64,000 nucleotides of DNA from Cytophagales bacterium (GCA_019456305.1 VRUD01000002.1:20118-84117); one strand, 5' to 3'; counted from the stretch's first letter, positions 9,235 to 62,610 are shown. A program made the numbers and translations. Notes: generated by a model not told the origin, from the letters alone.

Positions 9235-9257
9235 TGATTTACGATTATCATTTAATA

Positions 9258-21486: not shown

Positions 21487-21590
21487 CATAACTATCTGCT
21501 AAATAGAACGCTGATGACGCTGATAAAACGGATAATCACAGATAAAAAATCAGCGCAAATCAGCTAAATCAGTGTCATCCGCGTTCTATT
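21487..21590. repeat. 104-nt MITE-like element, copy A (overlaps the coaX 3' end)
   Basis: Identical to 40312..40415 except for one base (t/c at the 13th position). 17-nt termini aatagaacgctgatgac / gtcatccgcgttctatt are inverted (16/17). Confidence 0.9.
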
Positions 21591-22348: not shown

Positions 22349-22781
22349 GGGGGGCGGGATCTGTGTTGAAATATTGCTCGATTTCACTTAAAAACGTGCT
22401 CCAAACATCAGTTATATTATCTGACAATTTTTTCAACTCCTCTTCTTCCAGCATATAACCATATCCATGAACAAAGGAGTGCCTAAAGGTTAAATAGTCA
22501 TATAGTCTGTGAGCTAATGATGCTGAAATGATACCATGCGAAACAGCTTTTTGAACTAATTCTTTATGCCAGTATTCAGATTTTGGAAATGTAAGATGTT
22601 TTATTTTGTAAATCTGTTTTATAATATTTTCAATACCGTTATAAAAATTGTGAATGAATGTAGCAATAGCAGAAAGTTCAATAACACTTTTATCAGATCT
22701 CATTTCTGCATCTTTAAGATTTTCTAATGTAATTTCAATATGTTCTTTTTGGGCTAATATTTCTTCCGGTAGATCAGCCAT
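22332..22781 (-). CDS. hepT: HEPN-domain toxin (HepT/DUF86-like)
   Basis: 149 aa. Rx4HxY motif in 'LTFRHSFVHGYG'. Overlaps the upstream nucleotidyltransferase gene by 8 nt. Confidence 0.75.
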   Translation of the reverse strand: MADLPEEILAQKEHIEITLENLKDAEMRSDKSVIELSAIATFIHNFYNGIENIIKQIYKIKHLTFPKSEYWHKELVQKAVSHGIISASLAHRLYDYLTFRHSFVHGYGYMLEEEELKKLSDNITDVWSTFLSEIEQYFNTDPAPHEPGN

Positions 22782-37306: not shown

Positions 37307-37519
37307 ATGAATAATATGCAAATCCAAATTTCTACAGAAATAGATAAAAAACTTAAGCAGGTTTCAGATATATCAGGCTTCAGTGAAAAAGATATTATAG
37401 AAAGAGCTATTTTGTTTTACCTTGATACTATCCAGAAACAAATGCAATTAAAAAGTGAGTTTAAAGAATGGGATATGTTGAGTGATGAAGCTCTTGAAAA
37501 TTTTGAGAATATATTATGA
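37307..37519 (+). CDS. Ribbon-helix-helix antitoxin (MazE/CopG-like)
   Basis: 'MNNMQIQISTEIDKKLKQVSDISGFSEKDIIERAILFYLD'. ATG 37307 is preferred; the track's TTG at 37274 lies inside the TATTTTTG box (37269..37276). 4-nt overlap with the toxin gene. Confidence 0.7.
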   Translation: MNNMQIQISTEIDKKLKQVSDISGFSEKDIIERAILFYLDTIQKQMQLKSEFKEWDMLSDEALENFENIL

Positions 37520-37860
37520 AAAAAGGTGAAATCTGGTTAATTGAGATTCCACCTGTTAATGGTCGTGAACAGCGTGGCACAAGACCAGCCCTTATCTTAT
37601 CAGTATTGGAAGCAAATATAGTGATAATTCTTCCTTTTACTTCTAATCTTCAAGCATTGAGATTTCCTCACACAATTGAAATAAAACTTTCAAACAAAAA
37701 TGGTTTAAATTCAAATTCCATTGCCTTAGTGTTTCAAATAAGAGCGATTGATAAAAAGAGATTGAAAAATAAAATAGGCACATTAGAAACTAAAATTATA
37801 CAAAGAATTAATACAATGATTATTGATATTCTAAATTTAAAAATCAAACCAAAACAATGA
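37516..37860 (+). CDS. mazF: MazF/PemK-family endoribonuclease toxin
   Basis: 114 aa. 'KKGEIWLIEIPPVNGREQRGTRPALILS', '..LPFTSN'. Confidence 0.85.
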   Translation: MKKGEIWLIEIPPVNGREQRGTRPALILSVLEANIVIILPFTSNLQALRFPHTIEIKLSNKNGLNSNSIALVFQIRAIDKKRLKNKIGTLETKIIQRINTMIIDILNLKIKPKQ

Positions 37861-40235: not shown

Positions 40236-40309
40236 GCCCTCTTAGCTCAGTTGGTTAGAGCGGATGACTGTTAATCATTAGGTCGTAGGTTCGAGTCCTA
40301 CAGAGGGCG
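40236..40309 (+). tRNA. tRNA-Asn (GTT)
   Basis: Hand-folded cloverleaf. Acceptor GCCCTCT/AGAGGGC, D arm GCTC/GAGC, anticodon stem GATGA/TCATT with loop CTGTTAA, T arm GTAGG-TTCGAGT-CCTAC, discriminator G. CCA is not encoded. Confidence 0.95.
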
Positions 40310-40311
40310 CT

Positions 40312-40415
40312 CATAACTATCCGCTAAATAGAACGCTGATGACGCTGATAAAACGGATAATCACAGATAAAAAATCAGCGCAAATCAGCTAAATCAGTGT
40401 CATCCGCGTTCTATT
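40312..40415. repeat. 104-nt MITE-like element, copy B (starts 3 nt after tRNA-Asn)
   Basis: See copy A; 103/104 identical by eye. Confidence 0.9.
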
Positions 40416-40445
40416 ACTTTTTTCCGTTAATTTTTTAGAGGATAC

Positions 40446-40517: not shown

Positions 40518-40761
40518 TCTTAAAATATTTTTTATTTTTTTCTTTCATCTTTTAAAAACGGTGGGGCTTGGACACACACTTGGATTTTGGGTTATGGTAA
40601 ATGCTTGAGAGAATGCCAAATATGTGTACAAGCGAAGTGTGGTTATTCTTTCAATTATTTGTAATGCAGATTATCAATAAAATAATTTATGTGCGGGGCA
40701 GGCCAGCTGAGATTTCCGAAGGTTTCCGGTAAATGGAAAAGGAACTAATACTATCTTACCT

Positions 40762-40998
40762 TTATTCATTATAAGGTTTGCCGTCTTTAAAAGAGTATAT
40801 ATCTTCTTCTTTAGCTTTTAAGAATTCAAAGGCAGGATTATTACTTATTGCTTTATTCCATAATTTTTCCTCTATTTCATTTTCTTCATTAATCAGAATA
40901 ATTACTCTGACATTTTTGCTGTTTTTCAAATTGACAGGATTGTTCAATTTCAGAATGCCACTGCTATCAATATTCCCTGTTGTTTCAATTGCTCTCAT
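40762..40998 (-). CDS. Orphan antitoxin-like protein (DUF104-like N-terminus)
   Basis: 78 aa. 'MRAIETTGNIDSSGILKLNNPVNLKNSKNVRVIILI' fits the DUF104-type antitoxin pattern. CAAATATA (-7 box, minus strand) at 41037..41044. No toxin ORF follows. Confidence 0.45.
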   Translation of the reverse strand: MRAIETTGNIDSSGILKLNNPVNLKNSKNVRVIILINEENEIEEKLWNKAISNNPAFEFLKAKEEDIYSFKDGKPYNE

Positions 40999-41111: not shown

Positions 41112-43889
41112 TCAAACTATATCATCATCCTGCTTTTTATTTTTCAGATCCCTGCCTCTTAAATATCTCCTCAAAAACAACTGCACCGGCAGCAAGGTTG
41201 AAGCCAGTACCAAATTTAACAAGGTTTTGATGATAGGAGCGCTTCCAACATATTCTTCGTACAAAGGTTCGCACAAATTTTGGATAAATTCAAAAATAAC
41301 GAATAATGTGATATACACCATTATAGTGACTGTTCTGCCTTTACTGCCTTTACGGCTTGCTAATAAAGTACCTCCTATCAAAAGCATAAAAAACAGCAAC
41401 TGTGCGCTGTAGAACCAGCCAGTTTCCCAATAAGGCGGGGTAATAGTAATTGCAACAAAGATCCCATTTTGCCAAATGCCGTCATTATTGGAAGCTTTGA
41501 CCTTAAAAACATAATCGCCAGGGTCAATGTTTGTGTATTTTGCAATTCTGTTGCCGGCATCGCAATAGGTCCAGTCCTTGTCAAAATCTGCCAGCTTGTA
41601 GGCATATTGATTTTTCAGGGGGTCTGTAAAATCAAGTGCAGCAAATTCAAAGACGAAATTATTTTCATCATAGCTTAGCGTAACATTATTATTTTCATTG
41701 AGATCTTTAACAATTTGCCTGTTTTTAACTTTAAATTTTGTAATGGCGATGGGGGGTAGGTGTGGGTTGTCCACTACACTATCAGGATGAAAGATGTTAA
41801 ATCCGTGCATGCCTCCAAACACCATCTCACCTGTTTTTAATTTGCAATGTGCCTTGGTAAATTCGTTGTTCTGTAATCCGTCAGATTCGGTATAGATTCG
41901 AAAGGTTTCTCTTTCGGTGTCAAACTTCACAAGACCTTTATCAGTGCTTATCCATAGATAGCCGTGATCATCTTCCAGCATGCCTCCGATATTATTGCCG
42001 GGCAGTCCGTTTTCTGTTGTATAATGGCTGAAATTTCTTTTTTCTTTATTGAACTTGTTTAACCCATTGCTACCAATCCATACAATACCTCTGCTGTCTT
42101 CAAAAATTACAGTTATCGCATCACCCCCACCCCAAAATGTCGTTGAATCATGGGGTTTGTAAATAAAATGTTCTACTTCATCGTTTTCAAGGTTCATGCG
42201 GCATAATTTTCCATCAGTGGTGCCAACCCAAAGGTAACCTTTGCTGTCTTCATATATTTTTTTTGATAAACTATACAGGTAAGATAATTCATGAAGTTGT
42301 TTTTGGTAATATTTGCCTTTTTGTTTATCAAACAATTTTACACCCTGATTTCCCCATATTCCAACCCAAAAATTACCTTTGCTGTCTTCAAATAGATCAT
42401 GTATCCAGTCATAGTTATTATTATATATGAAAAAGCTATCGTTTTTTTTATCATACCTGAGCAATCCGTTGTTAGCTGCCCACAAACCAACCCACATAGT
42501 GCCGGATCTATCTTTATAAATCACTTGAACTTGATCTCTTTTGGTGTTAGCCGTATTAAACCGGTAATTTTTAAAAGTTCCATTTTTGCGGTCAAATACG
42601 TCCAGTCCTTTATCTTCCGTTCCGATCCACAGATTTCCATCATCATCTTCTATTATTGTTCTTATCCTGTTTGATGAAAGGGAATTATTATCTCCAACAA
42701 TATGCCTGTAATGTTTAAATTTGTACTTGTTCCTGCTGTATTTGCTGATGCCCTGGCCGGTTCCAATCCAAATATTTCCAGCTCTGTCTTCGTATATTTT
42801 ATTGATAGTATTATCAATTAGTGAACCCGGATCATTTTGATTATGTGGAGTGAATAATAGCTTGTTTTTTAAAACATCATACCTACAAACTCCTTCTTCT
42901 CTCATATAACCACCAAACCAGATCAATCCACGCCTATCTTCAATTATATCATACACTGGTCCGACAGGGAATTTTTGAAAATCCTGACGTTTAGGAAAGT
43001 GTTTGAAAAAATCAGGTCGATTTGCCAGATATGTATACCAATGTTGATCCCCAAGCCAGAGGTTTCCATAACGATCATTTAAAATACAACTTAAACATCC
43101 ACCTTTAATACCGGGAATTTCTTTGCTGCCCCTCTCATATATTTTCATTGTTTCCTCATCTCTATCAAATTTTATAAGACCAATACCACAACTCACGATC
43201 CACAAATTACCTCCCTTGTCTTCGTATATTTGATGTGCAGGATAATTTGGATGTCTATACTCACTGCCATGTTCAAAATGTTTAAACCTTGTTCCGAGCC
43301 CCGCCAAAGGCGGGGAGGGATCTCTTTTTTTATCACTAGTTCCTTTATTAACAGATCCTTTGCTGTCGCTCAGGACAAGCTTATTCAACACCCCATCTGC
43401 GGTCTCAATCCATAGTATTCCGCTTTTGTCGGCATAGATTTCCCTTACATAGTTATCGCTTAAGCTATTTTTATTATCCACATCATGGAAATAGTTAATG
43501 AACAGCTCATTGTTCCTGTCGTATTTATTCAGTCCTTTAAGAGTACCAATCCATAAATTACCGTAAATATCTTCTGTGATGGAAGAAATATAGTTGTCAG
43601 AGATCGTAGTGGAATCATGTGGTTTGTTAGTGTAAATTTGAAACTGGTATCCATCATACTTATTTAATCCTTCATAGGTTCCGATCCACAAAAACCCATA
43701 TTTATCCTGGAAGATATCTAATATCTCATTGTTGCTTAATCCGTCTGCTGTAGTGAGATTATCGAACTTTGATTGGGTGTCTTTTATTTTAATTACTTTG
43801 AACCTGTTACTGGAGTGATTGTAGGTTTGGGCTGTAATTTTTTCTCCCCAAAAAATGCCTGCAAGGATAAGTAGTGTGTTGATTTTCAT
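41112..43889 (-). CDS. Reg_prop/Y_Y_Y sensor paralog A ending in the conserved 3-TM module
   Basis: 925 aa. Signal peptide, many 'DGL.NN.I..I.ED..GN.WIGT..GL.K(Y/F)' blades, Y_Y_Y 'NNFVFEFAALDFT..NQYAYKL..FDKDW'. The C-terminus is 'WFYSAQLLFFMLLIGGTLLASRKG..FEFIQNLCEPLYEEYVGSAPIIKTLLNLVLASTLLPVQLFLRRYLRG'. Confidence 0.9.
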   Translation of the reverse strand: MKINTLLILAGIFWGEKITAQTYNHSSNRFKVIKIKDTQSKFDNLTTADGLSNNEILDIFQDKYGFLWIGTYEGLNKYDGYQFQIYTNKPHDSTTISDNYISSITEDIYGNLWIGTLKGLNKYDRNNELFINYFHDVDNKNSLSDNYVREIYADKSGILWIETADGVLNKLVLSDSKGSVNKGTSDKKRDPSPPLAGLGTRFKHFEHGSEYRHPNYPAHQIYEDKGGNLWIVSCGIGLIKFDRDEETMKIYERGSKEIPGIKGGCLSCILNDRYGNLWLGDQHWYTYLANRPDFFKHFPKRQDFQKFPVGPVYDIIEDRRGLIWFGGYMREEGVCRYDVLKNKLLFTPHNQNDPGSLIDNTINKIYEDRAGNIWIGTGQGISKYSRNKYKFKHYRHIVGDNNSLSSNRIRTIIEDDDGNLWIGTEDKGLDVFDRKNGTFKNYRFNTANTKRDQVQVIYKDRSGTMWVGLWAANNGLLRYDKKNDSFFIYNNNYDWIHDLFEDSKGNFWVGIWGNQGVKLFDKQKGKYYQKQLHELSYLYSLSKKIYEDSKGYLWVGTTDGKLCRMNLENDEVEHFIYKPHDSTTFWGGGDAITVIFEDSRGIVWIGSNGLNKFNKEKRNFSHYTTENGLPGNNIGGMLEDDHGYLWISTDKGLVKFDTERETFRIYTESDGLQNNEFTKAHCKLKTGEMVFGGMHGFNIFHPDSVVDNPHLPPIAITKFKVKNRQIVKDLNENNNVTLSYDENNFVFEFAALDFTDPLKNQYAYKLADFDKDWTYCDAGNRIAKYTNIDPGDYVFKVKASNNDGIWQNGIFVAITITPPYWETGWFYSAQLLFFMLLIGGTLLASRKGSKGRTVTIMVYITLFVIFEFIQNLCEPLYEEYVGSAPIIKTLLNLVLASTLLPVQLFLRRYLRGRDLKNKKQDDDIV

Positions 43890-43996
43890 AATGGAATATA
43901 CTTCAGAACATTCACCCTATGGAATTACCAATAGATCGGGAAGCGAAGCTATTCTACAGGGTAAATGTTTGCGTTTTAGCGATTTACAAAATCGCT

Positions 43997-46663
43997 TTAC
44001 ATCAATTCCCCTTTATCCTTTCCTTTCTGCTGTTTACCTCTCAGATATTTCCTCAAAAACAACTGCACCGGCAGCAAAGTTGAAGCCAGTACCAAATTTA
44101 ACAAGGTTTTGATGATAGGAGCGCTTCCAACATATTCTTCGTACAAAGGTTCACATAAATTTTGGATAAACTCAAAGATCACAAACAAACAGATATAAAC
44201 GAGTATGGTGATTGTGCGTGTTCCGGCACCTTTACGGCTGGCAATCAAGGTGCCTCCGATGAGCGCCATGAAGAACAGCAGCTCGGCGCTGTAAAACCAC
44301 CAGGATTGCCAGTAAGGTGGTTTGATGGTGAAGAAAAAGGTTGTAGGTTTCCAATTCCAAACACCATCATTATTGCAGGCGATAACCTTGAATGTGTATT
44401 TTCCCGGATTAAGGTTGGAGTATGTGAAGTGTGTTTCCTGAGTTTCGGATGACCATTTTTCATCAAATCCTTTAAGCTGATAACGGTAATGCACTTTTTC
44501 AGGTATGGTCAGAGAGATACCTATGTATTCGAAGGTGAGATGGTTTTTGTTGTAGGGTAGCACTAAACCAATTGGCATGCCGCTGTTTACAGAATCACAG
44601 TAAGGATGCCAATCTTCTTCACCTGAGAAGAGTTTTATTGCAGTAATATGTGTTAAGGGCTCAATTGTATTGGGTATATCTGCATTGGGATTGTATTTTA
44701 CTGCGCCTTTAGTAGTACCAAACCATAAATTTCCTTTTTTATCAATGCAGATATTAGACCCACATTCGGTCCCCCTGAAACCCTCTTGTATACCATAATG
44801 TTTAAATTTTTTCTTGCCTGTTTTGTTGTAAAGGGCTACATCAAATTTATTAATCCCTCTACCGGTAGCAGCCCATAAATTTCCGCTACGGTCAAAAATT
44901 AGTGATGCGATGATGTCATTGCTTAAGCCATCTTGAGTTGTAAAGCTGTCAATAACTTCTAAAGTTTTTTTATGATGAAATTTGCATTTAAAAATACCTT
45001 CTCCGTCAGTTCCAAACCACAGATTGCCTTGCAGGTCCTGGGTGATACTAAATACTGCTTTATAAGTGAAACTTTCATTTGCAGAAATGTTTTTAATAGT
45101 ATCCCCATTAAATACATTGACGCCACCACCATAGGTTCCGAACCACATATTGTAAGATATGTCTTCATAGATGCATAAAATTCTATTCGGATTTCTGCCA
45201 CCTTCCACTCTAAAATACTCTTTCTTTTTTCCGTCATATCTATATGCTCCGGCACCTCCTGAGCCAAACCACATATTACCTGAATGATCCTCATAAACAC
45301 ACATCCAGCCATTGAAAGGAACGCTAATCAATTCATTGTTATGAAATTGAAAACCTCCTGTTCTCGCCATATCATGCGAAAACCATATATCTCCGTTTTT
45401 ATCCTCTGCAACGGAAGTAATTCTGCTAATGGGCAAACCCTCTATTGAAGTAAAATTTGTAAACCCGCTATTGTCAGCACTTAAAGAATCGGGGCTATAC
45501 TTACTGATCCCCCCTTCGGTCGCGAACCAACTATTACCATTACGGTCTTCAATAATCCCATTGATCGTATTATTTACCAATCCAACTTCTTCATTATAAT
45601 AAGTAAACTTTTCGCCATTATATTTACAAACGTCACTGCCAAAAGTTCCAATCCAGATATTTCCTTCCCTATCATGTAATATTGACCACGTGGAATTAAT
45701 AGGGAGTCCCTGCTTTGTTGTAAAGTTGGTAAAAACCTTACCGTCATATTTGAATATTCCTCTTTCAAATGTTGCAATCCAGATATTGCCTTCAACATCT
45801 TTTGTCAACCCGATCATTGGAGAACCAAGTGCAAAACTTGTGATGTTATCTCCATCATGCCCATGTGGGTCAAATTTTTTTATGCTTCCACTCCAGGACA
45901 CACACCAAATACTACCATCATCATCTTCAACAATTCCAAAGCTTGCTGCAATTGAGCTTACCTTAATAACAGTATCACCCGTTGTTCCTTTCGGATCATA
46001 TTTAAAAAGTCCGCCACGCAATGCTCCAAACCACAGATTATCCTCATTATCCTGCATCATTGCACCGATCACGTTGCTTTTATATTTGCTGTTGATCTGA
46101 TAATTTTTAAATAAAATTGTATCAACCCCGCCTGTTTGCGGGGCTGAGTCTTTTTGATCAATGGTAGAACCTTGCGAATAATATGAAATAAGCTTGTTTG
46201 TGCCAACCCATAAATTTCCATCTTTATCTACAAGCAATGACCTGACGAAATTATAGGGTAATCCATTTTTAGTTGTATAAGCAGTAAATTTTGTACCATC
46301 AAATTTACTTAAGCCATTTGTTGTACCGAACCACATATTCCCATCATGATCTTCAGCAATAGAAAGTACCCTGTAATTGAGCAAGCCGGCTTTATCCGTA
46401 AAATTTTTAAAAGTTTTACCGTCAAACCGGCTCACACCGCCATGGGTGCCAAACCAGATGTAGCCCCTGCTGTCCTGGTACATGCATTCAATGGCTGATT
46501 GCACCAGGCCGTTTTCTACGGTGTAATAGGAAAAGTTATGCTGCCCTTCTGCTGGGCGGACAGATTGAGCCCATGATTCAAGATTAAAAATTGTTGAACA
46601 AAGCAAAATCCCGATGATAATCTGGAAAAATAGGAGAATGGATATGATTTGTAATTTTTTCAT
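43997..46663 (-). CDS. Reg_prop/Y_Y_Y sensor paralog B ending in the conserved 3-TM module
   Basis: 888 aa with the same architecture. Y_Y_Y 'NHLTFEYIGISLTIPEKVHYRYQLKGFDEKW'. C-terminal module as in paralog A. Confidence 0.9.
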   Translation of the reverse strand: MKKLQIISILLFFQIIIGILLCSTIFNLESWAQSVRPAEGQHNFSYYTVENGLVQSAIECMYQDSRGYIWFGTHGGVSRFDGKTFKNFTDKAGLLNYRVLSIAEDHDGNMWFGTTNGLSKFDGTKFTAYTTKNGLPYNFVRSLLVDKDGNLWVGTNKLISYYSQGSTIDQKDSAPQTGGVDTILFKNYQINSKYKSNVIGAMMQDNEDNLWFGALRGGLFKYDPKGTTGDTVIKVSSIAASFGIVEDDDGSIWCVSWSGSIKKFDPHGHDGDNITSFALGSPMIGLTKDVEGNIWIATFERGIFKYDGKVFTNFTTKQGLPINSTWSILHDREGNIWIGTFGSDVCKYNGEKFTYYNEEVGLVNNTINGIIEDRNGNSWFATEGGISKYSPDSLSADNSGFTNFTSIEGLPISRITSVAEDKNGDIWFSHDMARTGGFQFHNNELISVPFNGWMCVYEDHSGNMWFGSGGAGAYRYDGKKKEYFRVEGGRNPNRILCIYEDISYNMWFGTYGGGVNVFNGDTIKNISANESFTYKAVFSITQDLQGNLWFGTDGEGIFKCKFHHKKTLEVIDSFTTQDGLSNDIIASLIFDRSGNLWAATGRGINKFDVALYNKTGKKKFKHYGIQEGFRGTECGSNICIDKKGNLWFGTTKGAVKYNPNADIPNTIEPLTHITAIKLFSGEEDWHPYCDSVNSGMPIGLVLPYNKNHLTFEYIGISLTIPEKVHYRYQLKGFDEKWSSETQETHFTYSNLNPGKYTFKVIACNNDGVWNWKPTTFFFTIKPPYWQSWWFYSAELLFFMALIGGTLIASRKGAGTRTITILVYICLFVIFEFIQNLCEPLYEEYVGSAPIIKTLLNLVLASTLLPVQLFLRKYLRGKQQKGKDKGELM

Positions 46664-46798
46664 CCTGCTTAAATTTTAATGACTGTCCGTTTGTTTATAC
46701 CTATCTGTTTTATTTAGCGCATGACTGCATGCATCCATCCCGAGTACTCGGGAATCATGCTAAGTATAGTTATTAGGTATAACAAAGCGGATAACCAT

Positions 46799-49700
46799 TT
46801 AAATTTTAATCCCAATAACCAACACATCATCTATCTGCTCCTCATTGCCTTTCCATTTTTCAAAGGTAATATCTAATTTTTCACGCTGCTGTTCCATTGA
46901 AAGATCCTGTATTTCAAGGATAAGCTCTTTGAATCGTTTGTAGGAAAACTTTCTTCCTTCAGAGCCACCAAATTGATCAGCATAGCCATCTGAAAACAGG
47001 TAGATGCTGTCCCCTTTTTTTAAATTAATGGTATGGTCTGTAAAAATTTTTGTTCTGCCCCTGCTATCTGTTTCGCCCACCTTATCAATGCCAATCGGAA
47101 AACTGTTGCCTTTGACCTCACACAGATCATCACCAAAGGTGCGGACTTTATCATTATGCCCCAAGTCCCCCAGCTCGTGGATGATGTTTTTTCTAATTAT
47201 GTATAAAGGATTGTAAGCGCCAGCATATTGTAGTGAACGGGCATGCCCGTTCACTACACCTATACTGCAAATAGCAATATCCATCCCATCTTTTGTTTCA
47301 GAGCCCTCACCTGTTTGTTTTAAGGCATTCACAATACCATCATTGAGCTCTCCCAATATCTTTGCCGGTTGGTTAATTTTCCTTTTATTTATTATTTCAT
47401 TTAACAGGTCATTGCCTATCATGCTCATAAAGGCCCCGGGCACGCCATGGCCGGTGCAATCAACTGCCGCTATAATAAAAGAGGCCCCCCTATCAGTCCC
47501 CCCTAAATCCCCCCCAAAGGGGGGGACTTTGCCATCGCTTTTGCCTTGGGGAAGGGTAGAGTGTTGGCCAGTTCTCCCCCCTTTGGGGGGAGTTAGAGGG
47601 GGGCTGATGGGGCTGCTAAACCAATAAAAATCTCCACTCACAATATCCTTTGGCTTAAACAAAATGAATGACTGCGGAAAAACTTTATTGACCACATCAA
47701 CAGGAGGGAGAATAGCTTCTTGTATCAACTTTGCATAATTGATGCTATCTGTAATATCCTTATTCCTTTGTTCAATAACTTCATTGGTCTGAGCAATTTC
47801 CTCATTCAAAAAGTTTAACTCTTCATTCGTTATTTTCAATTCATCTCTTTGTACCGTTAATTCTTCTTTTTGCATTAGTATTTCCTCTTTCTGCGTCATA
47901 ACTTCAGCAGTACGTATTTTCACTTGATGCTCTAACTTCTTTTTTGCCTTTTGTAAATTTCTCACACGCCAACTATAAAAACCATAAATACTGCTCCCAC
48001 CGGTAATAAAACATAGCATATAAAACAATAAGGTTTGCCAAAAAGGAGGGGTGATGATAAAACTAAAAGTGGTTGGCTTTTTATTCCAGACTCCATCATT
48101 ATTACATGCTTTTACTTTTAGGATGTATTTTCCGGGCGGAATATTGGAATAGGTTACTTCATTTTTTTTTGTAATTGGCGACCAGTGTTGATCAAACCCG
48201 TCTAATATCCACTGATATCGCACTTTTTCCGGAATTTTAGTACTGATCCCGACAAAATCAAAAGTAAGATGATTTTGATTGTAGGATAGTTTCAAATTCA
48301 AGGGTAAAGCAAACCAGGGAGAAAAGCTATCAATCTGATAGTGGGAGCGCCATTTTGCACTGTTTACTTCTTCAAAAAACAGTTTTATTCCTGTAATGTA
48401 TGTTCTTGCCTCAACCATATTAGGCTTATCTTCTTTAGGGGAATATTTGTTGACGTCATTCACTGTACCAAACCACAGATTTCCTTTTGAGTCTCTGTAA
48501 ACAGCATTATTATTACACTCAACGCCCCTGAATCCATCTAATATAGAATATTGTTTAATTTTATAAGAGCCATTACTACTATCCGGGATAATTTTGTTGA
48601 TCCCGTTATTTGTCCCTGCCCAGATATTTCCCTCATCATCAACTATGAGGGAAACAATTGCGGCATTGGTTAAGCCGTCTTTAGTAGTAATATAAGACCA
48701 TGAATTATCAGGATGCAATATTGAAATCCCCTCGCCATAAGTGCCAAACCAACTATTTTGATAATTATCTTCAATAATTGATATAACACGGTGGTCGCTT
48801 AAACCTTCAATAAATTTTCCTACTAAATTGGGTAAGTTTTTTTTAAATTTCTTCACATGCTCCTTTTTAATAAAATGCGTGAATTTTTCGTTGGAAATAT
48901 CATCACTTGCTTTGTTGAGCAAACTTACACCTTCGCTCGTACCAAGCCATATTCTTCCTTTGCTGTCTTCATAAATTTTATTAACAGTGTTCCCAATGAT
49001 CCCTGTTTGAGTGTTATAATTAATAAATGAACCGGGTTTGTTTGAAAGGGAGTATTCCGGATTCAAGTATAAAAATTTAACAGCGCCTCCTCCTTCAGTA
49101 CCTACCCATAAATTTCCCCTGCTATCCACGAGCATTGAAAATATGTGATCGCTTGTCAGCCCATCAAGTTCAATACAGTTTTTGTTTCCATCGGCACAGG
49201 ATTTTTTTCTTTTATAAATTAGAAACTTATTCCCCGGTGTGGTGATGTCTTTTTCAATTAATTTATTGATACCTCCTCCTAAGGTACCAATCCAAATATC
49301 TCCGTTCTTATCATCAACAATAGCATGGACAACGCTTTCACCGATTCCCTGATCCCATGAATATTGTGTAAAATTGTTTCCATCAAAATTAAATACACCG
49401 CCACCCCAGTTGCCAAACCACATTTGCCCATATTTGTCTTCATGAATGGAAACCGCTGATTTAATGTTTAGATAGGTAAAAATCTTACCACTAAACATAG
49501 AAGCTCCACCGCTATATCCACCAAACCAAAGATTACCCTCACGGTCTTCCATAATAGAAATGATATGGTTATTACATAAACCTTGCCCCTCGTGATACCG
49601 TAAAATAGCGCCGGTTTGGGGATCATATTTTTCTACACCAAAACCGTCATGACCGAACCAGATATTACCTGCCTTGTCTTCAAAAATATCCCAGACACGG

Positions 49701-50584
49701 TTGGTACTTAGGGCATCCTGTAATGGAAAAGGTAAAAAGGAAACTTTACTAAACCTTTGAGGTTTAGTAAAGTTATTATTCAAAGAATCAATATTACTGC
49801 TTTTATAAAAATTAATACTTTCTTCAGGTAAATATGAAATCCCCCCTCTCCAACTGCTGACCCAGATATTTCCCTTTTTGTCTGGGAGTATGGCTCTTAC
49901 AAAATTATTGCTTAAACCCTGTTGTCGTGTAAAGTGTATGAAATCCGGATTAGCCACTTCATTTTGATAATAATCTGCTAATAAAAGATTTATTCCCCCA
50001 CCCCAGGTGCCAAACCAAATATTTTGATTCATATCTTTAACAATGGTGTTGACATAGCTATTGCTCAAGCCTTCATTTTTAGTATAATTTGTGATCTTAA
50101 AAGTATCTTTTGGGAATGTAGTATGGTTGGCAGTCAGCACACTAACACCTGCCGGTGTTCCAATCCAGATATTTCCACTTTTATCATTAAGTAGGGCAAG
50201 GGCAGTATTATCAACCAAACCAAACTCAGTAGTGATATTCTTAAAAACTTTTCCATCAAAGATGCTTACACCTCCATCTGTCCCAAGCCACATACGCCCT
50301 TTGTTGTCTTCAATAATTGCATAAACAAAGTTATTGGCAAGGCCATCATCAGTTGTAAAGTTTTTAAAAGAAACACCATCATAGCTGCTGACACCACCTT
50401 CTGTTGCAAACCAGATGTATCCCCTGCTGTCTTCATACATTGCATTTACCTGCGACTGTGCCAGGCCATTTTCAACCGTAAAATTTTTGAAGTTGTATTG
50501 CTGTGCAGAGCAGTAAGCAGTACGCAGTATGCAATAAGCAATTAACAGAGCAAGATAAATTGTAGGAACGATATTTCTTAGCAT
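46799..50584 (-). CDS. Reg_prop/Y_Y_Y sensor paralog C with one TM, a coiled coil and a SpoIIE/PP2C phosphatase domain
   Basis: 1261 aa. Y_Y_Y 'NHLTFDFVGISTKIPEKVRYQWILDGFDQHW'. TM 'LLFYMLCFITGGSSIYGFYSW'. Heptad-rich linker. PP2C 'SGDFYWF','AAVDCTGHGVPGAFMSM','DGMDIAIC','FSDGYADQFGG'. Confidence 0.9.
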   Translation of the reverse strand: MLRNIVPTIYLALLIAYCILRTAYCSAQQYNFKNFTVENGLAQSQVNAMYEDSRGYIWFATEGGVSSYDGVSFKNFTTDDGLANNFVYAIIEDNKGRMWLGTDGGVSIFDGKVFKNITTEFGLVDNTALALLNDKSGNIWIGTPAGVSVLTANHTTFPKDTFKITNYTKNEGLSNSYVNTIVKDMNQNIWFGTWGGGINLLLADYYQNEVANPDFIHFTRQQGLSNNFVRAILPDKKGNIWVSSWRGGISYLPEESINFYKSSNIDSLNNNFTKPQRFSKVSFLPFPLQDALSTNRVWDIFEDKAGNIWFGHDGFGVEKYDPQTGAILRYHEGQGLCNNHIISIMEDREGNLWFGGYSGGASMFSGKIFTYLNIKSAVSIHEDKYGQMWFGNWGGGVFNFDGNNFTQYSWDQGIGESVVHAIVDDKNGDIWIGTLGGGINKLIEKDITTPGNKFLIYKRKKSCADGNKNCIELDGLTSDHIFSMLVDSRGNLWVGTEGGGAVKFLYLNPEYSLSNKPGSFINYNTQTGIIGNTVNKIYEDSKGRIWLGTSEGVSLLNKASDDISNEKFTHFIKKEHVKKFKKNLPNLVGKFIEGLSDHRVISIIEDNYQNSWFGTYGEGISILHPDNSWSYITTKDGLTNAAIVSLIVDDEGNIWAGTNNGINKIIPDSSNGSYKIKQYSILDGFRGVECNNNAVYRDSKGNLWFGTVNDVNKYSPKEDKPNMVEARTYITGIKLFFEEVNSAKWRSHYQIDSFSPWFALPLNLKLSYNQNHLTFDFVGISTKIPEKVRYQWILDGFDQHWSPITKKNEVTYSNIPPGKYILKVKACNNDGVWNKKPTTFSFIITPPFWQTLLFYMLCFITGGSSIYGFYSWRVRNLQKAKKKLEHQVKIRTAEVMTQKEEILMQKEELTVQRDELKITNEELNFLNEEIAQTNEVIEQRNKDITDSINYAKLIQEAILPPVDVVNKVFPQSFILFKPKDIVSGDFYWFSSPISPPLTPPKGGRTGQHSTLPQGKSDGKVPPFGGDLGGTDRGASFIIAAVDCTGHGVPGAFMSMIGNDLLNEIINKRKINQPAKILGELNDGIVNALKQTGEGSETKDGMDIAICSIGVVNGHARSLQYAGAYNPLYIIRKNIIHELGDLGHNDKVRTFGDDLCEVKGNSFPIGIDKVGETDSRGRTKIFTDHTINLKKGDSIYLFSDGYADQFGGSEGRKFSYKRFKELILEIQDLSMEQQREKLDITFEKWKGNEEQIDDVLVIGIKI

Positions 50585-50623
50585 ATTTGTAAATTTAGAA
50601 CCATGGATATATGAAAAATCAAT

Positions 50624-53410
50624 CTACACCAACCCATCTTCAACTCCTCCTTGTTTTTTCTCTTTACCTCTCAGATATTTCCTCAAAAACAACTGCACAG
50701 GCAGCAAAGTTGAAGCCAGTATCAAATTTAAAAAAGTCTTTATGATAGGAGCGCTGCCGACATATTCTTCATATAAAGGTTCGCACAAATTCTGAATAAA
50801 CTCAAAGATCATAAACAAACAAATATAAACCAGGATAGTAACGGTCCGGTCTTTTACTCCTCTGCGCCTGGCTAATAATGTTCCGCCAATTAAAAGCATA
50901 AAAAACAGCAGTTGGGCGCTGTAAAACCAGCCTGTTTCCCAGTATGGTGGTTTGACTATGAAGGAAAAGGTGGTGGGTTCTTTGTTCCAAACACCGTCAT
51001 TATTGCATGCTTTTACCTTTATCGTGTATTTACCTGGAGGAATATTGGAATAAGTGGCAATATGTTCCTTTCCGGGAGGGGACCAGGCATTGTCCATTCC
51101 TTCCAGCTTGTATTGGTATTTTACTTTTTCAGGGATGGTTAAACTGATACCAACAAAATTAAAAGTTAAATGATTTTTGTAGTAGGGAAGTTTCAGATTA
51201 AAAGGTAACCCAGTATTTGCATGAATACTATCAGAAAAGTTTAAATAGTTAAAATCTTTTAAAAAAAGCCTAATCCTGGTAATATGTGTTTTCGGTTGGT
51301 TGGTATTTATTTTGTCTTTTCGGGGATCAAATTTTGTAATTCCCTTAACAGTTCCAAACCATAAATTGCCTTTTGTATCACTAAAGATGGAATTGCATTC
51401 AATACCTGTAAATCCTTCTAATTTGCCATAATGCTTAATTTCAATTTCACCTGTAGTGTTAAACTTATTGATATTAAATCTGTCAATACCTTTATTTGTA
51501 CCGGCCCAAAGATACCCCACTTCATCTATTACCATCGAAATAACACTATTGGAACTTAAGCCATCGGCTTGCATAATGGTTTGAAAATATTTACCATCTT
51601 TTCTTTCATCATTATATTTGCTTACACCACCTCCTAAAACACCAAACCAGACGTTACCTTCATTATCTTCCTGTATCGTTGTAACAATTGTACCTTCTAA
51701 ACCTAAATTGTCTTTTTTAGTAAAACCTTTCATAGTTTTACCGTCATATTTATTTATTCCACCATATGAAGCCATCCAAACATTTCCTTTACTATCAACT
51801 AATATATCATTTATATATCTTTGAACTAACCCATCATTTAAAGTAAAATTAGTAAACATGGGAGGGGATCCCTCGCTGTCGCCCAGGACAAGCTTTGAAA
51901 CGCCACCATTTGTTCCAATCCACAAACACCCTTCACTGTCTTCGTCAATTGAAATAATTCTGTTAGTGATCATTCCGTCATCTCTTGTAAAAATGGTCAA
52001 TTCATTAAATTCTTTTTTAGGATCATACTTGCATAGCCCTGCCGGTGTGCCTATCCAGATATTGCCTTTCCTATCCTTAAGCAAAACAGTGACAACATTG
52101 ACCGGTAATCCTTCATTTGTAGTATAATTTGTAAAAGTTAGAGAGGAGCTAAGCTTACTCAACCCGCCTTCAGTAGCAAACCAGATATTTCCATCCTGAT
52201 CTTCTGTGAATGAACTTACTTTATGATTTATGATACCATCTTTTTCATAATAATGAGTAAACGCATCCCCACTGAATTTGCATAAACCACTTCCACTTGT
52301 CCCTATCCAGATGTTGCCTTCATTATCTTCGAGTAAGCTTCTTACAGAATTTCCGCTTAATCCATTTTCCTCCCTGTAATTTTTAAATCCTACACCCGAT
52401 TTTAAATCGGATGTACCAGCACGATCGTATTTGCTAACACCACCATTACAGCCAAACCAAAGATTTCCCACTTCATCTTCAATTATAGTAAGCACCATAT
52501 TACCTGCCAATCCATCTGCTACAGAATAATGTTCAAAATTTTTGCCATTATAATAACTCACCCCTGTATAATAGTCGCCCATCCAAATAGACCCTTTGTT
52601 ATCTTCAAGCAGAGCACAAATAAATCTGTGTTCAAGGCCTTGTTGTGTGGTAAAAGTTTCAATATTTTTGCCTGCCTCGCCCGCCTGCCATGTTTGGGCT
52701 TTGCCTTTGGAATGTACAGACGCCCAATTTGGGCGTCTCTTGTCGGGGAGCGTATCAGGGTAATTATACCTGAATAAACTTGATTTTACCCCAAACCATA
52801 TATTATTGTTTTTATCCTGCATCACTGCCCAGACCTGGCTTTCTTCCAAATTATTTTTTTTACTGAAATTTGTGAATTCCTTTCCATTGTAAGTACAGAT
52901 GCCTTTGGTGGTGGCTAACCATAACACGCCCTTGTGATCTTCTATTATTTTTAATATGATGTTACTATTTAAACCATCTTTTACGGTATAATTAATAAAG
53001 TACAGACGCCCAATTTGGGCGTCTCTGTTAACATCATCATTCTTTTCTTCACCAGAACTGCCACTGCTACTGCCTTTATATTTCCCCAATCCACCGCTGT
53101 CCATGCCAATCCAGATATTTCCTTTTGAATCTTCCATGATTGAATAAATACGATCATTACCCAATCCGTCTTTTGAAGTGAAAATAACGAAATTAGTACC
53201 ATCAAAGCGACATAAACCGCCTCCGTAAGTTCCAATCCATAAATAACCTTTACTGTCCTGCAATAATGCATAGACCTGAGATTGCGGTAATCCATTTTCT
53301 ATGGTATACCAGGAAAAGTTGTATTGTTGAGCAGTGCAGTGAGCAGTACGCAGTATACAATAAGCAATTAACAGAGCAAGATAAATTGCAGGAACGATAT
53401 TTCTTAGCAT
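50624..53410 (-). CDS. Reg_prop/Y_Y_Y sensor paralog D ending in the conserved 3-TM module
   Basis: 928 aa. Y_Y_Y 'NHLTFNFVGISLTIPEKVKYQYKLEGMDNAW'. C-terminal module as in A and B. At least four repeat-encoded inserts. Confidence 0.9.
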   Translation of the reverse strand: MLRNIVPAIYLALLIAYCILRTAHCTAQQYNFSWYTIENGLPQSQVYALLQDSKGYLWIGTYGGGLCRFDGTNFVIFTSKDGLGNDRIYSIMEDSKGNIWIGMDSGGLGKYKGSSSGSSGEEKNDDVNRDAQIGRLYFINYTVKDGLNSNIILKIIEDHKGVLWLATTKGICTYNGKEFTNFSKKNNLEESQVWAVMQDKNNNIWFGVKSSLFRYNYPDTLPDKRRPNWASVHSKGKAQTWQAGEAGKNIETFTTQQGLEHRFICALLEDNKGSIWMGDYYTGVSYYNGKNFEHYSVADGLAGNMVLTIIEDEVGNLWFGCNGGVSKYDRAGTSDLKSGVGFKNYREENGLSGNSVRSLLEDNEGNIWIGTSGSGLCKFSGDAFTHYYEKDGIINHKVSSFTEDQDGNIWFATEGGLSKLSSSLTFTNYTTNEGLPVNVVTVLLKDRKGNIWIGTPAGLCKYDPKKEFNELTIFTRDDGMITNRIISIDEDSEGCLWIGTNGGVSKLVLGDSEGSPPMFTNFTLNDGLVQRYINDILVDSKGNVWMASYGGINKYDGKTMKGFTKKDNLGLEGTIVTTIQEDNEGNVWFGVLGGGVSKYNDERKDGKYFQTIMQADGLSSNSVISMVIDEVGYLWAGTNKGIDRFNINKFNTTGEIEIKHYGKLEGFTGIECNSIFSDTKGNLWFGTVKGITKFDPRKDKINTNQPKTHITRIRLFLKDFNYLNFSDSIHANTGLPFNLKLPYYKNHLTFNFVGISLTIPEKVKYQYKLEGMDNAWSPPGKEHIATYSNIPPGKYTIKVKACNNDGVWNKEPTTFSFIVKPPYWETGWFYSAQLLFFMLLIGGTLLARRRGVKDRTVTILVYICLFMIFEFIQNLCEPLYEEYVGSAPIIKTFLNLILASTLLPVQLFLRKYLRGKEKKQGGVEDGLV

Positions 53411-53546
53411 ATTTGGTAATGACCCCAGTGAAATGTTCTGCTGCGCAGAATTTCACGTGGTAAACTAATGATTTTTTCCACGACTGAAAGGTAAGAATTA
53501 TTCAAAATTAAATTATAAAGTAAAAAGAAATAAATAAATTTGTGCT

Positions 53547-55019: not shown

Positions 55020-55361
55020 TCAGATTGATAGGTATTTTTTTATAGCTTCTTTTACGGATAATAATATATGATTTTCACAATTTCCAATCAACTTTATGAA
55101 TCTCCTTTTATCAAATGAGCTGATTTGTCTGGTTTTTATAAGGGAATCCTTCATCAACCGATTTGTTTCAGATTTTGAGAGGTAAACATCAAGTTCGATT
55201 TTCTTTTCCGTTTTAGAGGAGATGGGAATTATAGTTATCAGATTCCCTGATTCAATAAATTCATCACTCTCTATGATCAATCCGGGCCGCACTTTTTTAT
55301 ATTCGTGTCCAATACTTGGGTCAAAATTAATTAACCAAATTTGGCCTTCACTAAATTCCAT
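55020..55361 (-). CDS. MazF/PemK-family toxin (second copy)
   Basis: 113 aa. 'EGQIWLINFDPSIGHEYKKVRPGLIIESD', 'IIPISSK'. Confidence 0.8.
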   Translation of the reverse strand: MEFSEGQIWLINFDPSIGHEYKKVRPGLIIESDEFIESGNLITIIPISSKTEKKIELDVYLSKSETNRLMKDSLIKTRQISSFDKRRFIKLIGNCENHILLSVKEAIKKYLSI

Positions 55362-60306: not shown

Positions 60307-62610
60307 ATGGAAAAGTTAAAAACCATAATCGCAGCAATATCAGCAATAGGAATATTTTTCTTTTTTGCTGCTATGCAAGTTTCAAAAGCACAAATCACCT
60401 GGGATTCAACAGACATTGCATTGCCGGGAACCATGATCTTCCAGGCAACTGACACTGTTCCAAGCATTGTTCCCGGAGGTGCAGGGCCTTCTCAGATCTG
60501 GAATTTCTCTGCCATTAACAACCAGATCTCTGACACGCTTTTCTTTAGTGACCCGGCTTTGGTTGCCAATGGAGACGCATTTCCGAATTCAAATTTAGTA
60601 TTCGTGCAACCAAATAACGACCCTTTTTTCCTTAAGATAACTTCAGCAAAGCTTACTGCTTTGGGGTTAGCAGGAGATCTTTTTGGTACGGGAGATACTA
60701 TTATTATTTCTTTTGATCCTGAGATGGTAATATTTGAATTTCCTGAAAATTATCAGGATACGCTTATGGATACATCTAAATTTATTCTTGAAATGCCAAA
60801 TGTGGGAGGCCTGCCACCTAATTTTGATAGCATAAGAATTATAAATACCTCTTATACAAATTCTAATATAGATGCATGGGGCACTGTGTACACTCCTTTA
60901 GATACCTTTGATTGTTTGAGGCAATATTCTGAGGAGATCAGCATTGATAGCGCTTTTGGCCATGATACCTTGAGTGGAAACTGGGTTTTCTTTTCCCCCC
61001 CACAAATTGATACTACTGTAACTTATAGCTGGCTCGCAAAAGATGTTGGTTTTCCAGTAGTGGATATTGAACTTGACAGTGCAGGCAATGTTATGGAAGC
61101 AAAATACTTGTATGCACTACCTGCTTCAATTCCAATTTCTGCCACCATTACTTCTTCCACCAATCCGGTCTGCAATGGCGACTGTAACGGACAGGCTACA
61201 GTAACTGCAATAGGTGGTGCACCGCCTTATACATATTCATGGGATGACACCACTACTCAAACTACTAAAACAGCTACCGGGCTTTGTGCCGGAACTTATA
61301 TTGTGATGGTTACAGATACATTGCTTGCAACTTCAAGCGACACGATTGTTATAAGTGATCCTCCGGCAGTTGTGGCTAATATCACAGCAGGCGGGCCTGC
61401 TACTTTCTGTGCAGGTGACAGTGTGGAATTAGCATCAGATACTGCAGGTATTACCAGCTATGACTGGTTGTTAAATAGTGTATCCACTGCTGATACAGGC
61501 TGGACCTATAATGCACTTATGGGTGGAGATTATCAGGTGGTGGTTTGGAATGCCTTTGGTTGTTATGATACATCAGCAGCAACCACCGTAACGGTCAACC
61601 CGTTACCTGTTATTACAGTAACGCCTAATCCTGGTGTCGTATGCGGCACTGGAGATTCGGTAATGATAATAGCAAGCGGTGCTGCATCCTACGCATGGTC
61701 ACCGCCAACAGACTTAAGCGCTACTACCGGTGATACTGCATATGCTAACCCGACAACAAATACAACTTATACAGTAATAGGTACTGACGCTAACAGTTGC
61801 GTTGACTCTACAACAGTTTTAGTTCAATTAAGCACCGCAGGAGCTGTTGCATCGTTTACATCAGATGTAATAAGCGGATGTGGCAGCGTTACTGTTACAT
61901 TTGATGGAAGTCTATCTACAGATGCCATCGGGTATAGCTGGTCATTCCCGGGTGGAACGCCCAACACTTCAAACCTTCAGAATCCGGTTGTTACTTATGA
62001 TACTGTAGGTGTTTGGAATGTAACTTTAACGGCATTTGGATGCAGTGGTTTAGATAGTACCATCATCATGTCAGGTTATATAACTGTTGATTCGTTACCA
62101 ACTGTTACTTTTACTGCGTTAGCAAATGTGTGTGATACAATCACTGCGCTTGCATTAACAGGTGGAAGTCCTGCAGGAGGTACTTATTCCGGGCCAAATG
62201 TAAATGGTGGCAATTTTAATGCTCAAGCAGCAGGTTTTGGTACTTATACTATTACCTATACCTATACGGATGGTATAACTGGTTGTACAGATTCTGCTAC
62301 CCAGCCCATTGCCGTAGATTCGTGCCCTCTGGTTGGAGTAATGGAACTATTTGATGCAGCTAACAGCATCAGGCTGTATCCTAACCCAACTGCCGGTGTA
62401 ATAAATATTGATGTAGAGGCTGATATGAAAGTAGCATCAATCAAGGTTTACAATATTATTGGGAGCTTGGTTGTTGAGGTTACTAATAACAGTGGTTTGA
62501 ATAATGATCATTATTCCATTGATCTTTCAACTCAGCCAAAAGGCACTTACCTGGTAAAGATTCAAACCGCAGAGGAGGTAATAGTTAGAAAATTAAATCT
62601 TAATTTTTGA
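60307..62610 (+). CDS. T9SS-secreted multidomain surface protein (SprB-type repeat, Ig-like repeats, PKD, CTD)
   Basis: 767 aa. Signal peptide. 'CNGDCNGQATVTAIGGAPPYTYSWDD..GLCAGTYIVMVTD'. PKD 'YSWSFPGGTPNTSNLQNPVVTYDTVGVWNVTL'. CTD 'RLYPNPTAGVINIDVE...GTYLVKIQT'. Confidence 0.85.
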   Translation: MEKLKTIIAAISAIGIFFFFAAMQVSKAQITWDSTDIALPGTMIFQATDTVPSIVPGGAGPSQIWNFSAINNQISDTLFFSDPALVANGDAFPNSNLVFVQPNNDPFFLKITSAKLTALGLAGDLFGTGDTIIISFDPEMVIFEFPENYQDTLMDTSKFILEMPNVGGLPPNFDSIRIINTSYTNSNIDAWGTVYTPLDTFDCLRQYSEEISIDSAFGHDTLSGNWVFFSPPQIDTTVTYSWLAKDVGFPVVDIELDSAGNVMEAKYLYALPASIPISATITSSTNPVCNGDCNGQATVTAIGGAPPYTYSWDDTTTQTTKTATGLCAGTYIVMVTDTLLATSSDTIVISDPPAVVANITAGGPATFCAGDSVELASDTAGITSYDWLLNSVSTADTGWTYNALMGGDYQVVVWNAFGCYDTSAATTVTVNPLPVITVTPNPGVVCGTGDSVMIIASGAASYAWSPPTDLSATTGDTAYANPTTNTTYTVIGTDANSCVDSTTVLVQLSTAGAVASFTSDVISGCGSVTVTFDGSLSTDAIGYSWSFPGGTPNTSNLQNPVVTYDTVGVWNVTLTAFGCSGLDSTIIMSGYITVDSLPTVTFTALANVCDTITALALTGGSPAGGTYSGPNVNGGNFNAQAAGFGTYTITYTYTDGITGCTDSATQPIAVDSCPLVGVMELFDAANSIRLYPNPTAGVINIDVEADMKVASIKVYNIIGSLVVEVTNNSGLNNDHYSIDLSTQPKGTYLVKIQTAEEVIVRKLNLNF

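Follow-up and report, generated by a model that had tools for sequence, protein, structure and literature searches.

A tandem array of four sensor genes occupies positions 41112-53410 of the window, the 64,000-nucleotide stretch of a Cytophagales bacterium that we analysed (GCA_019456305.1, VRUD01000002.1:20118-84117). Three of the encoded proteins (A, B and D) end in a module of three transmembrane (TM) helices, and we conclude from sequence comparisons that this module is a real, widespread and unannotated Bacteroidota family of well over 100 proteins. Naming it as a family would re-annotate hundreds of proteins; A, B, D and their relatives are all called "hypothetical protein" in the public records examined.

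The three-helix module and its family

The array consists of four intact open reading frames (ORFs) on the minus strand, transcribed in the order D, C, B, A and separated by gaps of 107, 135 and 39 nt, the last of which lies between D and C. A sequence-only reading of the window had described four same-strand genes with these lengths and gaps, and ORFs were found at exactly those coordinates. Gene D (50624-53410, 928 aa, GenBank MBW8048882.1), the first in the array, encodes a putative signal peptide, Reg_prop propellers, a Y_Y_Y domain and the three-helix module; B (43997-46663, 888 aa, MBW8048880.1) and A (41112-43889, 925 aa, MBW8048879.1), the last, likewise encode the sensor and the module. 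Gene C (46799-50584, 1261 aa, MBW8048881.1, annotated "SpoIIE family protein phosphatase") leads from the same sensor through one TM helix and a heptad linker into a PP2C (SpoIIE-family) phosphatase. The source records, MBW8048879-82, belong to a Cytophagales metagenome-assembled genome (MAG), in which they lie on a 102,868-bp contig.

HTCS (hybrid two-component system) sensors are the main route of glycan sensing in Bacteroidota. Pfam found the periplasmic part of such a sensor in all four proteins, with Reg_prop (PF07494) at E-values from 1e-60 to 4e-72 and Y_Y_Y (PF07495) from 5e-16 to 2e-19, and SpoIIE in C alone, bearing out the domain layout proposed earlier. The Y_Y_Y domains lie on the minus strand at 50951-51136 in D (aa 759-820, E = 1.8e-19), 48053-48235 in C (aa 784-844, E = 1.3e-18), 44321-44506 in B (aa 720-781, E = 2.8e-19) and 41451-41633 in A (aa 753-813, E = 5.2e-16). 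In a search of PDB sequences, the periplasmic part of D proved homologous to the solved HTCS sensors 4A2L (BT4663-type, E = 4e-61), 3V9F and 3OTT, with E-values across the three from 4e-61 to 2.5e-42. Signal peptides had been proposed for all four: N-terminal hydrophobic segments, the sole basis for this call, are present in each, that of A being short. Identity with PorZ (NCBIfam NF052228) of T9SS, the type IX secretion system, was rejected: scores of 93-120 bits against a cut-off of 260 reflect propeller similarity only, and none of the four carries a Por_Secre_tail. Pfam detected no HisKA, HATPase_c, REC, AraC-type helix-turn-helix (HTH) or GerE domain in A-D, so that A, B and D are without a catalytic or DNA-binding output, as had been noted. 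To our knowledge, the HTCS-type sensors characterised so far all end in a cytoplasmic kinase, phosphatase or DNA-binding domain.

The module occupies 50627-50950 in D (aa 821-928), 44000-44320 in B (aa 782-888) and 41115-41438 in A (aa 818-925), all on the minus strand. The family hidden Markov model (HMM) covers aa 821-921 of 928 in D (E = 4.7e-43), aa 782-884 of 888 in B (E = 5.9e-44) and aa 818-921 of 925 in A (E = 6.1e-43). The helices and loops quoted in the sequence-only reading are present in the translations, although the tail, put there at about 90 aa after Y_Y_Y, extends 107-112 aa past the Pfam envelope of that domain. At a hydropathy threshold of 1.6, A and B each show three peaks and D shows two; the third helix of D is nearly identical to those of A and B. 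AlphaFold2, run on 39 family tails, predicted helices at residues 7-29, 34-63 and 68-94 (mean pLDDT 83.6, pTM 0.64).

Residue numbering and signature frequencies refer to 171 aligned module copies. TM1 is preceded by the junction PP(Y/F)W-x-T-x-W-F-Y. TM2 holds F49 (84%), E50 (91% E plus 5% D) and F/Y51, and closes with E/D57 (93%) and P58 (74%); an acidic loop 2 with G65, G/S66 and P68 (86%) leads into TM3, which carries K71 (69%), N75 (87%), L78, A79 (91%), P84 (98%) and E/H/Q86 (97%). A, B and D show the complete signature, that is F-E-(F/Y) in TM2, (E/D)-P, the G-(G/S)-x-P loop, K...N..LA and P-x-(E/H/Q), in the versions IFEFIQN, CEP, GSAP, K..LNL.LA and PVQ. Position 86 is thus Gln in the sub-family of the window (P-V-Q), as it is in 13% of the family. 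The basic loop 1 and the basic tail average 2.7 and 3.4 Lys plus Arg, loop 2 only 0.2; this charge distribution fits an N-out/C-in topology and agrees with the positive-inside pattern described earlier. With such a topology, only loop 1 (about 10 aa) and the tail (about 20 aa) would be exposed to the cytoplasm.

In the P-x-Q sub-family the tail closes with an acidic-hydrophobic peptide (DDDIV, GELM, DGLV, EDELV, DDEIV and similar), of the form [DE][DEG][LI][VMLT]-COOH after a basic linker of 12-20 aa. It is encoded at 41115-41129 in A, 44000-44014 in B and 50627-50641 in D, and recurs in the sub-family relatives P0001, P0002, P0007-P0013, P0015 and P0016. A strict pattern scan of 132 family members found it in 11, all of this sub-family, and in none of the rest; close variants (LEELI, LEEV, LDEMV and LEDLV) end four more P-x-Q members. 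The peptide may be a cytoplasmic docking motif.

The sequence-only reading had not recognised the tail as a described domain, and database searches returned nothing significant either. Pfam, run on tails alone, gave only sub-threshold and inconsistent TM-type matches, no family being matched by more than 5 of the 39 members scanned singly; NCBIfam had no match on the tail, a profile search of PDB sequences gave nothing at E<=10, and Foldseek of the module model against PDB folds reached a best E of 1.1. Among the candidates rejected, LptF_LptG (PF03739) scored 11-14 bits against a cut-off of 27.9 (E = 0.02-0.2) in 4 of the 39 members, over only the last three TM helices of its profile, and DUF2207_C (PF20990) 20-25 bits against 33, in relatives with tetratricopeptide repeats (TPR) only; we take both to be matches at the level of composition. 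The same holds for DAGK_prokar, DUF5658 and 7TMR-DISM_7TM, which stayed below their cut-offs and were inconsistent among members. A PEP-CTERM-like sorting signal, composed of a motif, a TM helix and a basic tail, was set aside as well: the module is made of three helices and in TPR proteins also stands inside the chain, and it matched no NCBIfam sorting-signal model. Our literature search found no paper on an output-less Reg_prop/Y_Y_Y protein.

The extent of the family became apparent from an exhaustive HMMER search with the tail profile against 1.84 billion cluster representatives (clusters at 50% identity); a short-word index search had given only 4-6 short fragments. There were 473 matching representatives at E<=1e-3, the weakest of which may, as paralog C does, match only the PP(Y/F)W-TM1 junction common to all Y_Y_Y proteins, 105 at E<=1e-10 and 14 at E<=1e-30, with a best E of 4e-55. 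Our family analysis set comprised 152 matches, namely the best 150 listed and two fragments from the earlier search. The module ends no more than 40 aa from the C-terminus in 145 of the 152, and is followed by 0-30 aa in most. Y_Y_Y stands upstream of it in at least 121, 76 of these with recognisable propellers. The three longest extensions beyond the module (124-200 aa; P0099, P0131 and P0148) hold no Pfam domain, and no cytoplasmic output domain was seen in the matches examined.

Another 18 of the 152 are TPR proteins in which a unit of signal peptide, TPR array and three TM helices is repeated two or three times. Their signature, FFEF..LLDP..E..GGEP.WKLL.NA.LA..IFP.H.FFE.KLKKR, is common to both types, which argues that the TPR-type and Y_Y_Y-type modules are homologous. 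In several of the TPR proteins examined, a further hydrophobic segment lies between units, after the first module; it would return the chain to the periplasm so that each module keeps the same orientation, which also fits an N-out/C-in topology. The tail had been taken as a module of A, B and D; it does appear to be an uncatalogued domain, yet the breadth of the family and the TPR fusions had been missed.

Conservation is concentrated in the module. Across 72 full-length family members, mean pairwise identity was 34% for TM2-TM3, 30% for Y_Y_Y, 19% for the propellers and 13% for the cytoplasmic tail. Within the array, the tails of A, B and D are 77-81% identical, as opposed to 26-41% for the whole paralogs, a contrast that, from the alignments, is far beyond chance. 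Among tail codons for identical residues, 32-45% differ at the nucleotide level, which argues that purifying selection on the tail is real. Conservation is restricted to one helical face in TM1 (p = 0.003), and not in TM2 (p = 0.32) or TM3 (p = 0.20); this spread hints, though weakly, that TM2 and TM3 make contacts outside the core of the bundle.

The array, its phosphatase paralog and the surrounding window

Part of the similarity among the array genes is local. A gene-conversion tract in A (41168-41270) matches 44050-44152 in B at 102 of 103 nt, covering the end of TM2, loop 2 and TM3; the same region is identical to D at 92-93 of 103 nt, and the TM1 region groups A with D. At the other end of the genes, 53316-53420 in D (10 nt upstream and the putative signal peptide) is 92% identical to the 5' end of C (50490-50594), and the first 120 coding nt of C and D show 85% identity. 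A metagenomic relative, P0007, combines a B-like body (72% identity) with D-like ends. Close relatives have reordered or altered the array. A MAG with 92% nucleotide identity (L022) has the permease gene, C and a D-like gene with a B-like 5' end, and a metagenomic relative (L023) has the permease gene, a Fic gene and a 74-aa remnant of the D tail. In both L023 and L024 a Fic-domain gene (376 aa) stands in place of most of D; of the D tail only the last 58 residues survive, in a 74-aa ORF behind the Fic gene. These rearrangements indicate that the array is a young, recombining tandem duplication, in which sensors and phosphatase do not form a conserved unit. A scan for promoters and terminators stayed at chance level; no intergenic terminator was found, and weak hairpins fall within the tail coding sequence.

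Wider surroundings were sampled in at least 17 genome loci and at least 6 metagenome loci, searched with an alignment of close relatives. The genome loci listed come from Cyclobacteriaceae, Flammeovirgaceae, Microscillaceae, Bernardetiaceae, Cytophagaceae, Marivirga (including the complete M. tractuosa chromosome), one Bacteroidales MAG and unclassified Bacteroidetes. Among them most have one family gene, and only L001 has three inside 15 kb, two of the Y_Y_Y type and one of the TPR type; a SpoIIE paralog lies near the family gene in none of those listed. The sequence-only reading had implied a unit of output-less sensors and a phosphatase paralog. The comparison does not support such a unit: none of 14 more distant loci listed with a complete Reg_prop/Y_Y_Y and three-TM gene has a SpoIIE neighbour, and gene order had changed in L022 and D was mostly replaced in L023. 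Conservation of the array in relatives is likewise partial: the C-D pair is present in the 92%-identical relative, but in the order permease-C-D, and D is mostly replaced in another.

An all-against-all BLAST of ORFs from 17 loci and the window showed shared synteny only within clades, for example a hotdog-like 140-aa gene overlapping the 3' end of the family gene in the Marivirga clade. In four loci, three of them from that clade, a convergent gene for a PKD-domain T9SS cargo protein with CHU_C lies up to about 0.5 kb downstream of the family gene (L001 10318-12417; L009 4478-5512; L010 2255-7399, grouped by BLAST and not scanned; L014 10787-12802). The window has PKD/Por_Secre_tail genes of its own at 9231-10844 and 60307-62610. 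As a conserved neighbour the PKD/CHU_C gene was rejected, its position being probably due to chance, since such genes are too common in these genomes.

Gene C stands apart as a complete SiaA/RsbU-like PP2C sensor phosphatase; it is a paralog of A, B and D by descent and not a demonstrated partner. The single TM helix, heptad-rich linker and SpoIIE/PP2C domain proposed for it earlier were supported by hydropathy, periodicity, Pfam and alignment to SiaA. The helix (47969-48031, minus strand, aa 852-872, LLFYMLCFITGGSSIYGFYSW) is followed by a basic stretch, RVRNLQKAKKK, and coincides with the only hydropathy peak after the signal segment (aa 842-870, Kyte-Doolittle 1.59); against the family HMM only 12 residues match, at the PP(F/Y)W junction (E = 0.12). 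The cytoplasmic linker (47705-47959, minus strand, aa 876-960) has a 3.5-residue hydrophobic periodicity (power 0.74, compared to 0.33 in permutations; p about 0.02). SpoIIE (PF07228) matches aa 1035-1260 with E = 3.7e-15 and 56.8 bits against a cut-off of 25. The whole PP2C region (46808-47788, minus strand, aa 933-1259) aligns to the phosphatase domain of Pseudomonas aeruginosa SiaA (6K4E, E = 1.4e-27), with the metal-binding and catalytic motifs GDFY, VDCTGHG (within VDCTGHGVPGA), SDG..DQ (SDGYADQ) and DDV retained. Identity with the SiaA equivalog (NCBIfam NF038263) was rejected, the score of 159 bits against a cut-off of 700 being confined to the PP2C part.

The alignment to SiaA 6K4E breaks (query residues 62-106) exactly at a GC-rich palindromic mini-element (47488-47612, aa about 991-1032), an inverted repeat with arms CCCCCCTTTGGGGGG... 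that sits in frame in a PP2C loop and adds about 44 aa between GDFYWF and VDCTGHG. The pattern is like that of the in-frame palindromic elements of Rickettsia. A related arm lies in the gene of a CHAT protein, at 28743-28802 (ORF 26077-29193).

Partners of C were sought among the window ORFs of at least 90 aa scanned, a set that left out antisense ORFs nested in larger genes. No STAS, anti-sigma, DUF1987, HATPase_c_2, kinase or response-regulator gene was among them, in agreement with the earlier statement that the window has no STAS or anti-sigma partner, nor was any member of a PP2C partner-switching set of the RsbU/RsbV or SiaABC type (SiaB, SiaC, SiaD or STAS). The array is flanked instead by a cytosine/purine permease gene (divergent, upstream of D), toxin-antitoxin genes, a tRNA-Asn and fatty-acid oxidation genes.

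Several further elements were observed in the window. An ORF 7.5 kb from the array (32442-33626, plus strand, 394 aa) has Reg_prop only (E = 6e-37), with no Y_Y_Y and no three-helix module; it may represent either part of a gene or a periplasmic propeller that stands alone. Short palindromes, apparently in-frame insertions in propeller loops, interrupt Reg_prop coding sequence in gene D (52714-52740 and 53000-53026), in gene C (49742-49774) and in the ORF just mentioned (32699-32767); one of them reads GTACAGACGCCCAATTTGGGCGTCTCT, an element encoding KLVLGDSEGSPP is shared, and 51864-51910 and 33420-33466 belong to the same list. Two intergenic copies, 96% identical, of an element about 105 nt long lie at 21487-21598 and 40312-40423; inverted repeats (AATAGAACGC...GCGTTCTATT) form its termini. 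The second begins right after the tRNA-Asn (40236-40310), the only hit of an Rfam scan; the first has no adjoining tRNA fragment, so that the element looks like a miniature repeat and not an att site. Toxin-antitoxin and mobile genes are dense (37516-37860, 55020-55361, 40674-40998, 22332-22781 and 15850-16311) and comprise two MazF/PemK toxins, a truncated MazF-like ORF, a HepT toxin and an IS200-type Y1 transposase. The truncated MazF-like ORF, just downstream of gene A, adjoins a 78-aa ORF that by eye is a candidate AbrB-type antitoxin (no Pfam match). Finally, eight tandem 126-nt units at 26431-27383, in ORF 26077-29193, are the TPR repeats of a 1038-aa TPR-CHAT protein.

What the module may do

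The reading we prefer, while holding it at somewhat less than even confidence, is that A, B and D are intact and belong to an unannotated family of Bacteroidota inner-membrane receptors, in which the module is an intramembrane output or assembly element. The HTCS-type sensor is kept, a conserved and portable three-helix module stands in the place of the cytoplasmic transmitter, and this module would itself be the output. In the way described for the HTCS sensors of Bacteroides, ligand binding would move the pair of Y_Y_Y stalks and through them TM1 and the TM2-TM3 hairpin, which bears nearly invariant polar residues embedded in the membrane (E50 in F-E-F, N75 and P84-x-E/H/Q86). From there the signal would pass sideways within the membrane, by altered self-association and/or by contact with an unlinked membrane partner, and in the P-x-Q sub-family the short basic tail with its acidic-hydrophobic end (DDDIV, GELM, DGLV) could add a docking handle. 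The array would thus set diverged sensors (26-41% identity), presumably with different ligands, on one common module. What suggests an output role is that the same sensor elsewhere carries a kinase/REC/AraC chain, a PP2C domain (gene C) or GerE (BguR, see below), and that the membrane-embedded polar residues are invariant in a module that is the best-conserved part of the protein. A more specific form of the idea is possible, if doubtful: the module may be an unrecognised Bacteroidota intramembrane output domain, an alternative to kinase, PP2C or HTH for propeller/Y_Y_Y and TPR sensors without a cytoplasmic domain, that gates a polar or proton path of conserved carboxylates or switches contacts with a shared, unlinked membrane partner; in the array, different sensors would then all feed into a single channel or partner of this kind.

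Several observations weigh against an output role. No conserved neighbour of complete family genes emerged in the 14 loci compared or in three further contigs, and no partner was identified. TPR arrays are scaffolds for protein interaction as often as they are sensors, and suit an anchoring role just as well. The conserved polar residues could have a structural role only, as a network of hydrogen bonds between the helices of a small bundle. Judging from the shared tracts, the identity of the tails within the array is also due in part to gene conversion or concerted evolution and not to selection. Along these lines A, B and D might be non-signalling, anchored periplasmic proteins, whose propeller/Ig or TPR ectodomain binds glycans or proteins as a scaffold, retention device or binding array and whose module is a stable inner-membrane anchor. 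We consider this possible, though doubtful. The minimal cytoplasmic exposure, the missing partner gene, the TPR scaffolds and a cytoplasmic tail that varies across the whole family all accord with an anchor. However, one TM helix suffices for that purpose, and paralog C, BguR and HTCS proteins have just one after the same Y_Y_Y. Moreover, an inert anchor would not be expected to retain a mid-membrane Glu (91%), Asn (87%), Pro (98%) and the G-G-x-P loop in over 100 clusters with ectodomains of two unrelated types, nor to be the best-conserved part of the protein. Between intramembrane signalling and a tethered binding array, the choice is by inference only.

The remaining explanations strike us as weaker. 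Dimerised modules might form a carboxylate-lined polar path, an ion- or proton-conducting or proton-motive-force-coupled unit gated by the periplasmic domain or energising it. Conserved acidic positions do occur at three depths, the periplasmic end of TM2 (E/D57), mid-membrane (E50) and the cytoplasmic end of TM3 (E86), with N75 and K71 alongside; HTCS-type sensors are dimeric, as is general knowledge for BT4663, to which we found homology, and the TPR relatives have two or three modules per chain. Such conduction is nevertheless improbable and the idea speculative, as the module has no sequence or fold similarity to a channel, transporter or stator (best Foldseek E against the PDB 1.1), position 86 is Gln in the very sub-family of the window, and a three-helix unit is very small for a pore. 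We regard it as similarly unlikely that C, or another Y_Y_Y sensor with an output, is modulated by A, B and D through heteromers of periplasmic domains or TM helices, which would widen the ligand range of the phosphatase or act as dominant-negative decoys. The genes are adjacent on the same strand with just 39 nt between D and C and no intergenic terminator found, C and D share 92% identity at their 5' ends, and the C-D pair recurs in the 92%-identical relative. Yet this adjacency is lineage-specific, no SpoIIE paralog lying near a complete sensor gene in the 14 more distant loci, even the closest relative has a different gene order and another has lost most of D, the sensors share just 26-38% identity with C, and the TM helix of C is unlike the module beyond the 12 residues of the junction. 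Lastly, decayed or truncated sensors, pseudogenes or assembly artefacts, which only the absence of an output domain would suggest, are very improbable: the ORFs are full length, many synonymous differences lie beside preserved residues, and the same ending recurs in more than 100 clusters from many genomes, including the complete Marivirga tractuosa chromosome. It is this family-wide conservation of the ending that refutes decay.

A widespread class with such a conserved membrane ending would thus represent either an all-in-membrane signalling route or a large, unrecognised class of anchored periplasmic binding proteins. The module and the family are new and useful for annotation and for genetics, for which E50, N75 and P84 are concrete targets and Marivirga tractuosa is a cultured species with a single-copy family member (locus L014).

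Comparison with known systems

The closest relatives of the array proteins on the periplasmic side are the Bacteroides HTCS sensors (BT4663, 4A2L/4A2M; 3V9F; 3OTT/3VA6), which have the same Reg_prop and Y_Y_Y sensor and share the PP(Y/F)W junction into TM1 with A, B, D and paralog C. In A, B and D, a TM2-TM3 hairpin followed by the end of the protein replaces HisKA/HATPase/REC/AraC. The logic of an HTCS-like sensor with a simplified, non-kinase output is the same in the membrane-spanning one-component regulators of the BguR or SusR type. BguR, from non-gut Bacteroidota, joins an HTCS-like double-propeller and Y_Y_Y sensor through a single TM helix to a cytoplasmic GerE domain (bioRxiv 10.64898/2026.01.10.698779). 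Where BguR-type regulators have one TM helix and a GerE/LuxR HTH, the TM helices of A, B and D number three and a DNA-binding domain is absent. For gene C alone, the layout of membrane sensor, helical linker and PP2C is that of SiaA (P. aeruginosa PA0172, 6K4E) and the RsbU/SpoIIE-type phosphatases, from which it differs in that its sensor is an HTCS-type propeller/Y_Y_Y and its PP2C loop carries the 44-aa insertion of the palindromic element.

Accessory membrane proteins that control kinases through TM contacts are known from YycH/YycI with WalK, LiaF with LiaS, and MgrB/SafA with PhoQ. These too combine an extracytoplasmic domain with one or more TM segments, have no catalytic output and act laterally, a mechanistic analogy only: they have no sequence relationship with A, B and D, and they are encoded beside their kinase, whereas the family described here has no conserved neighbour. 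Three TM helices likewise follow a periplasmic domain in the C-terminal parts of LptF/LptG (PF03739) and in DUF2207_C (PF20990), with weak, sub-cut-off similarity. Taken by their domain and motif content, A, B and D lack the outputs that define the HTCS and BguR-type families and carry the features of the family defined here.

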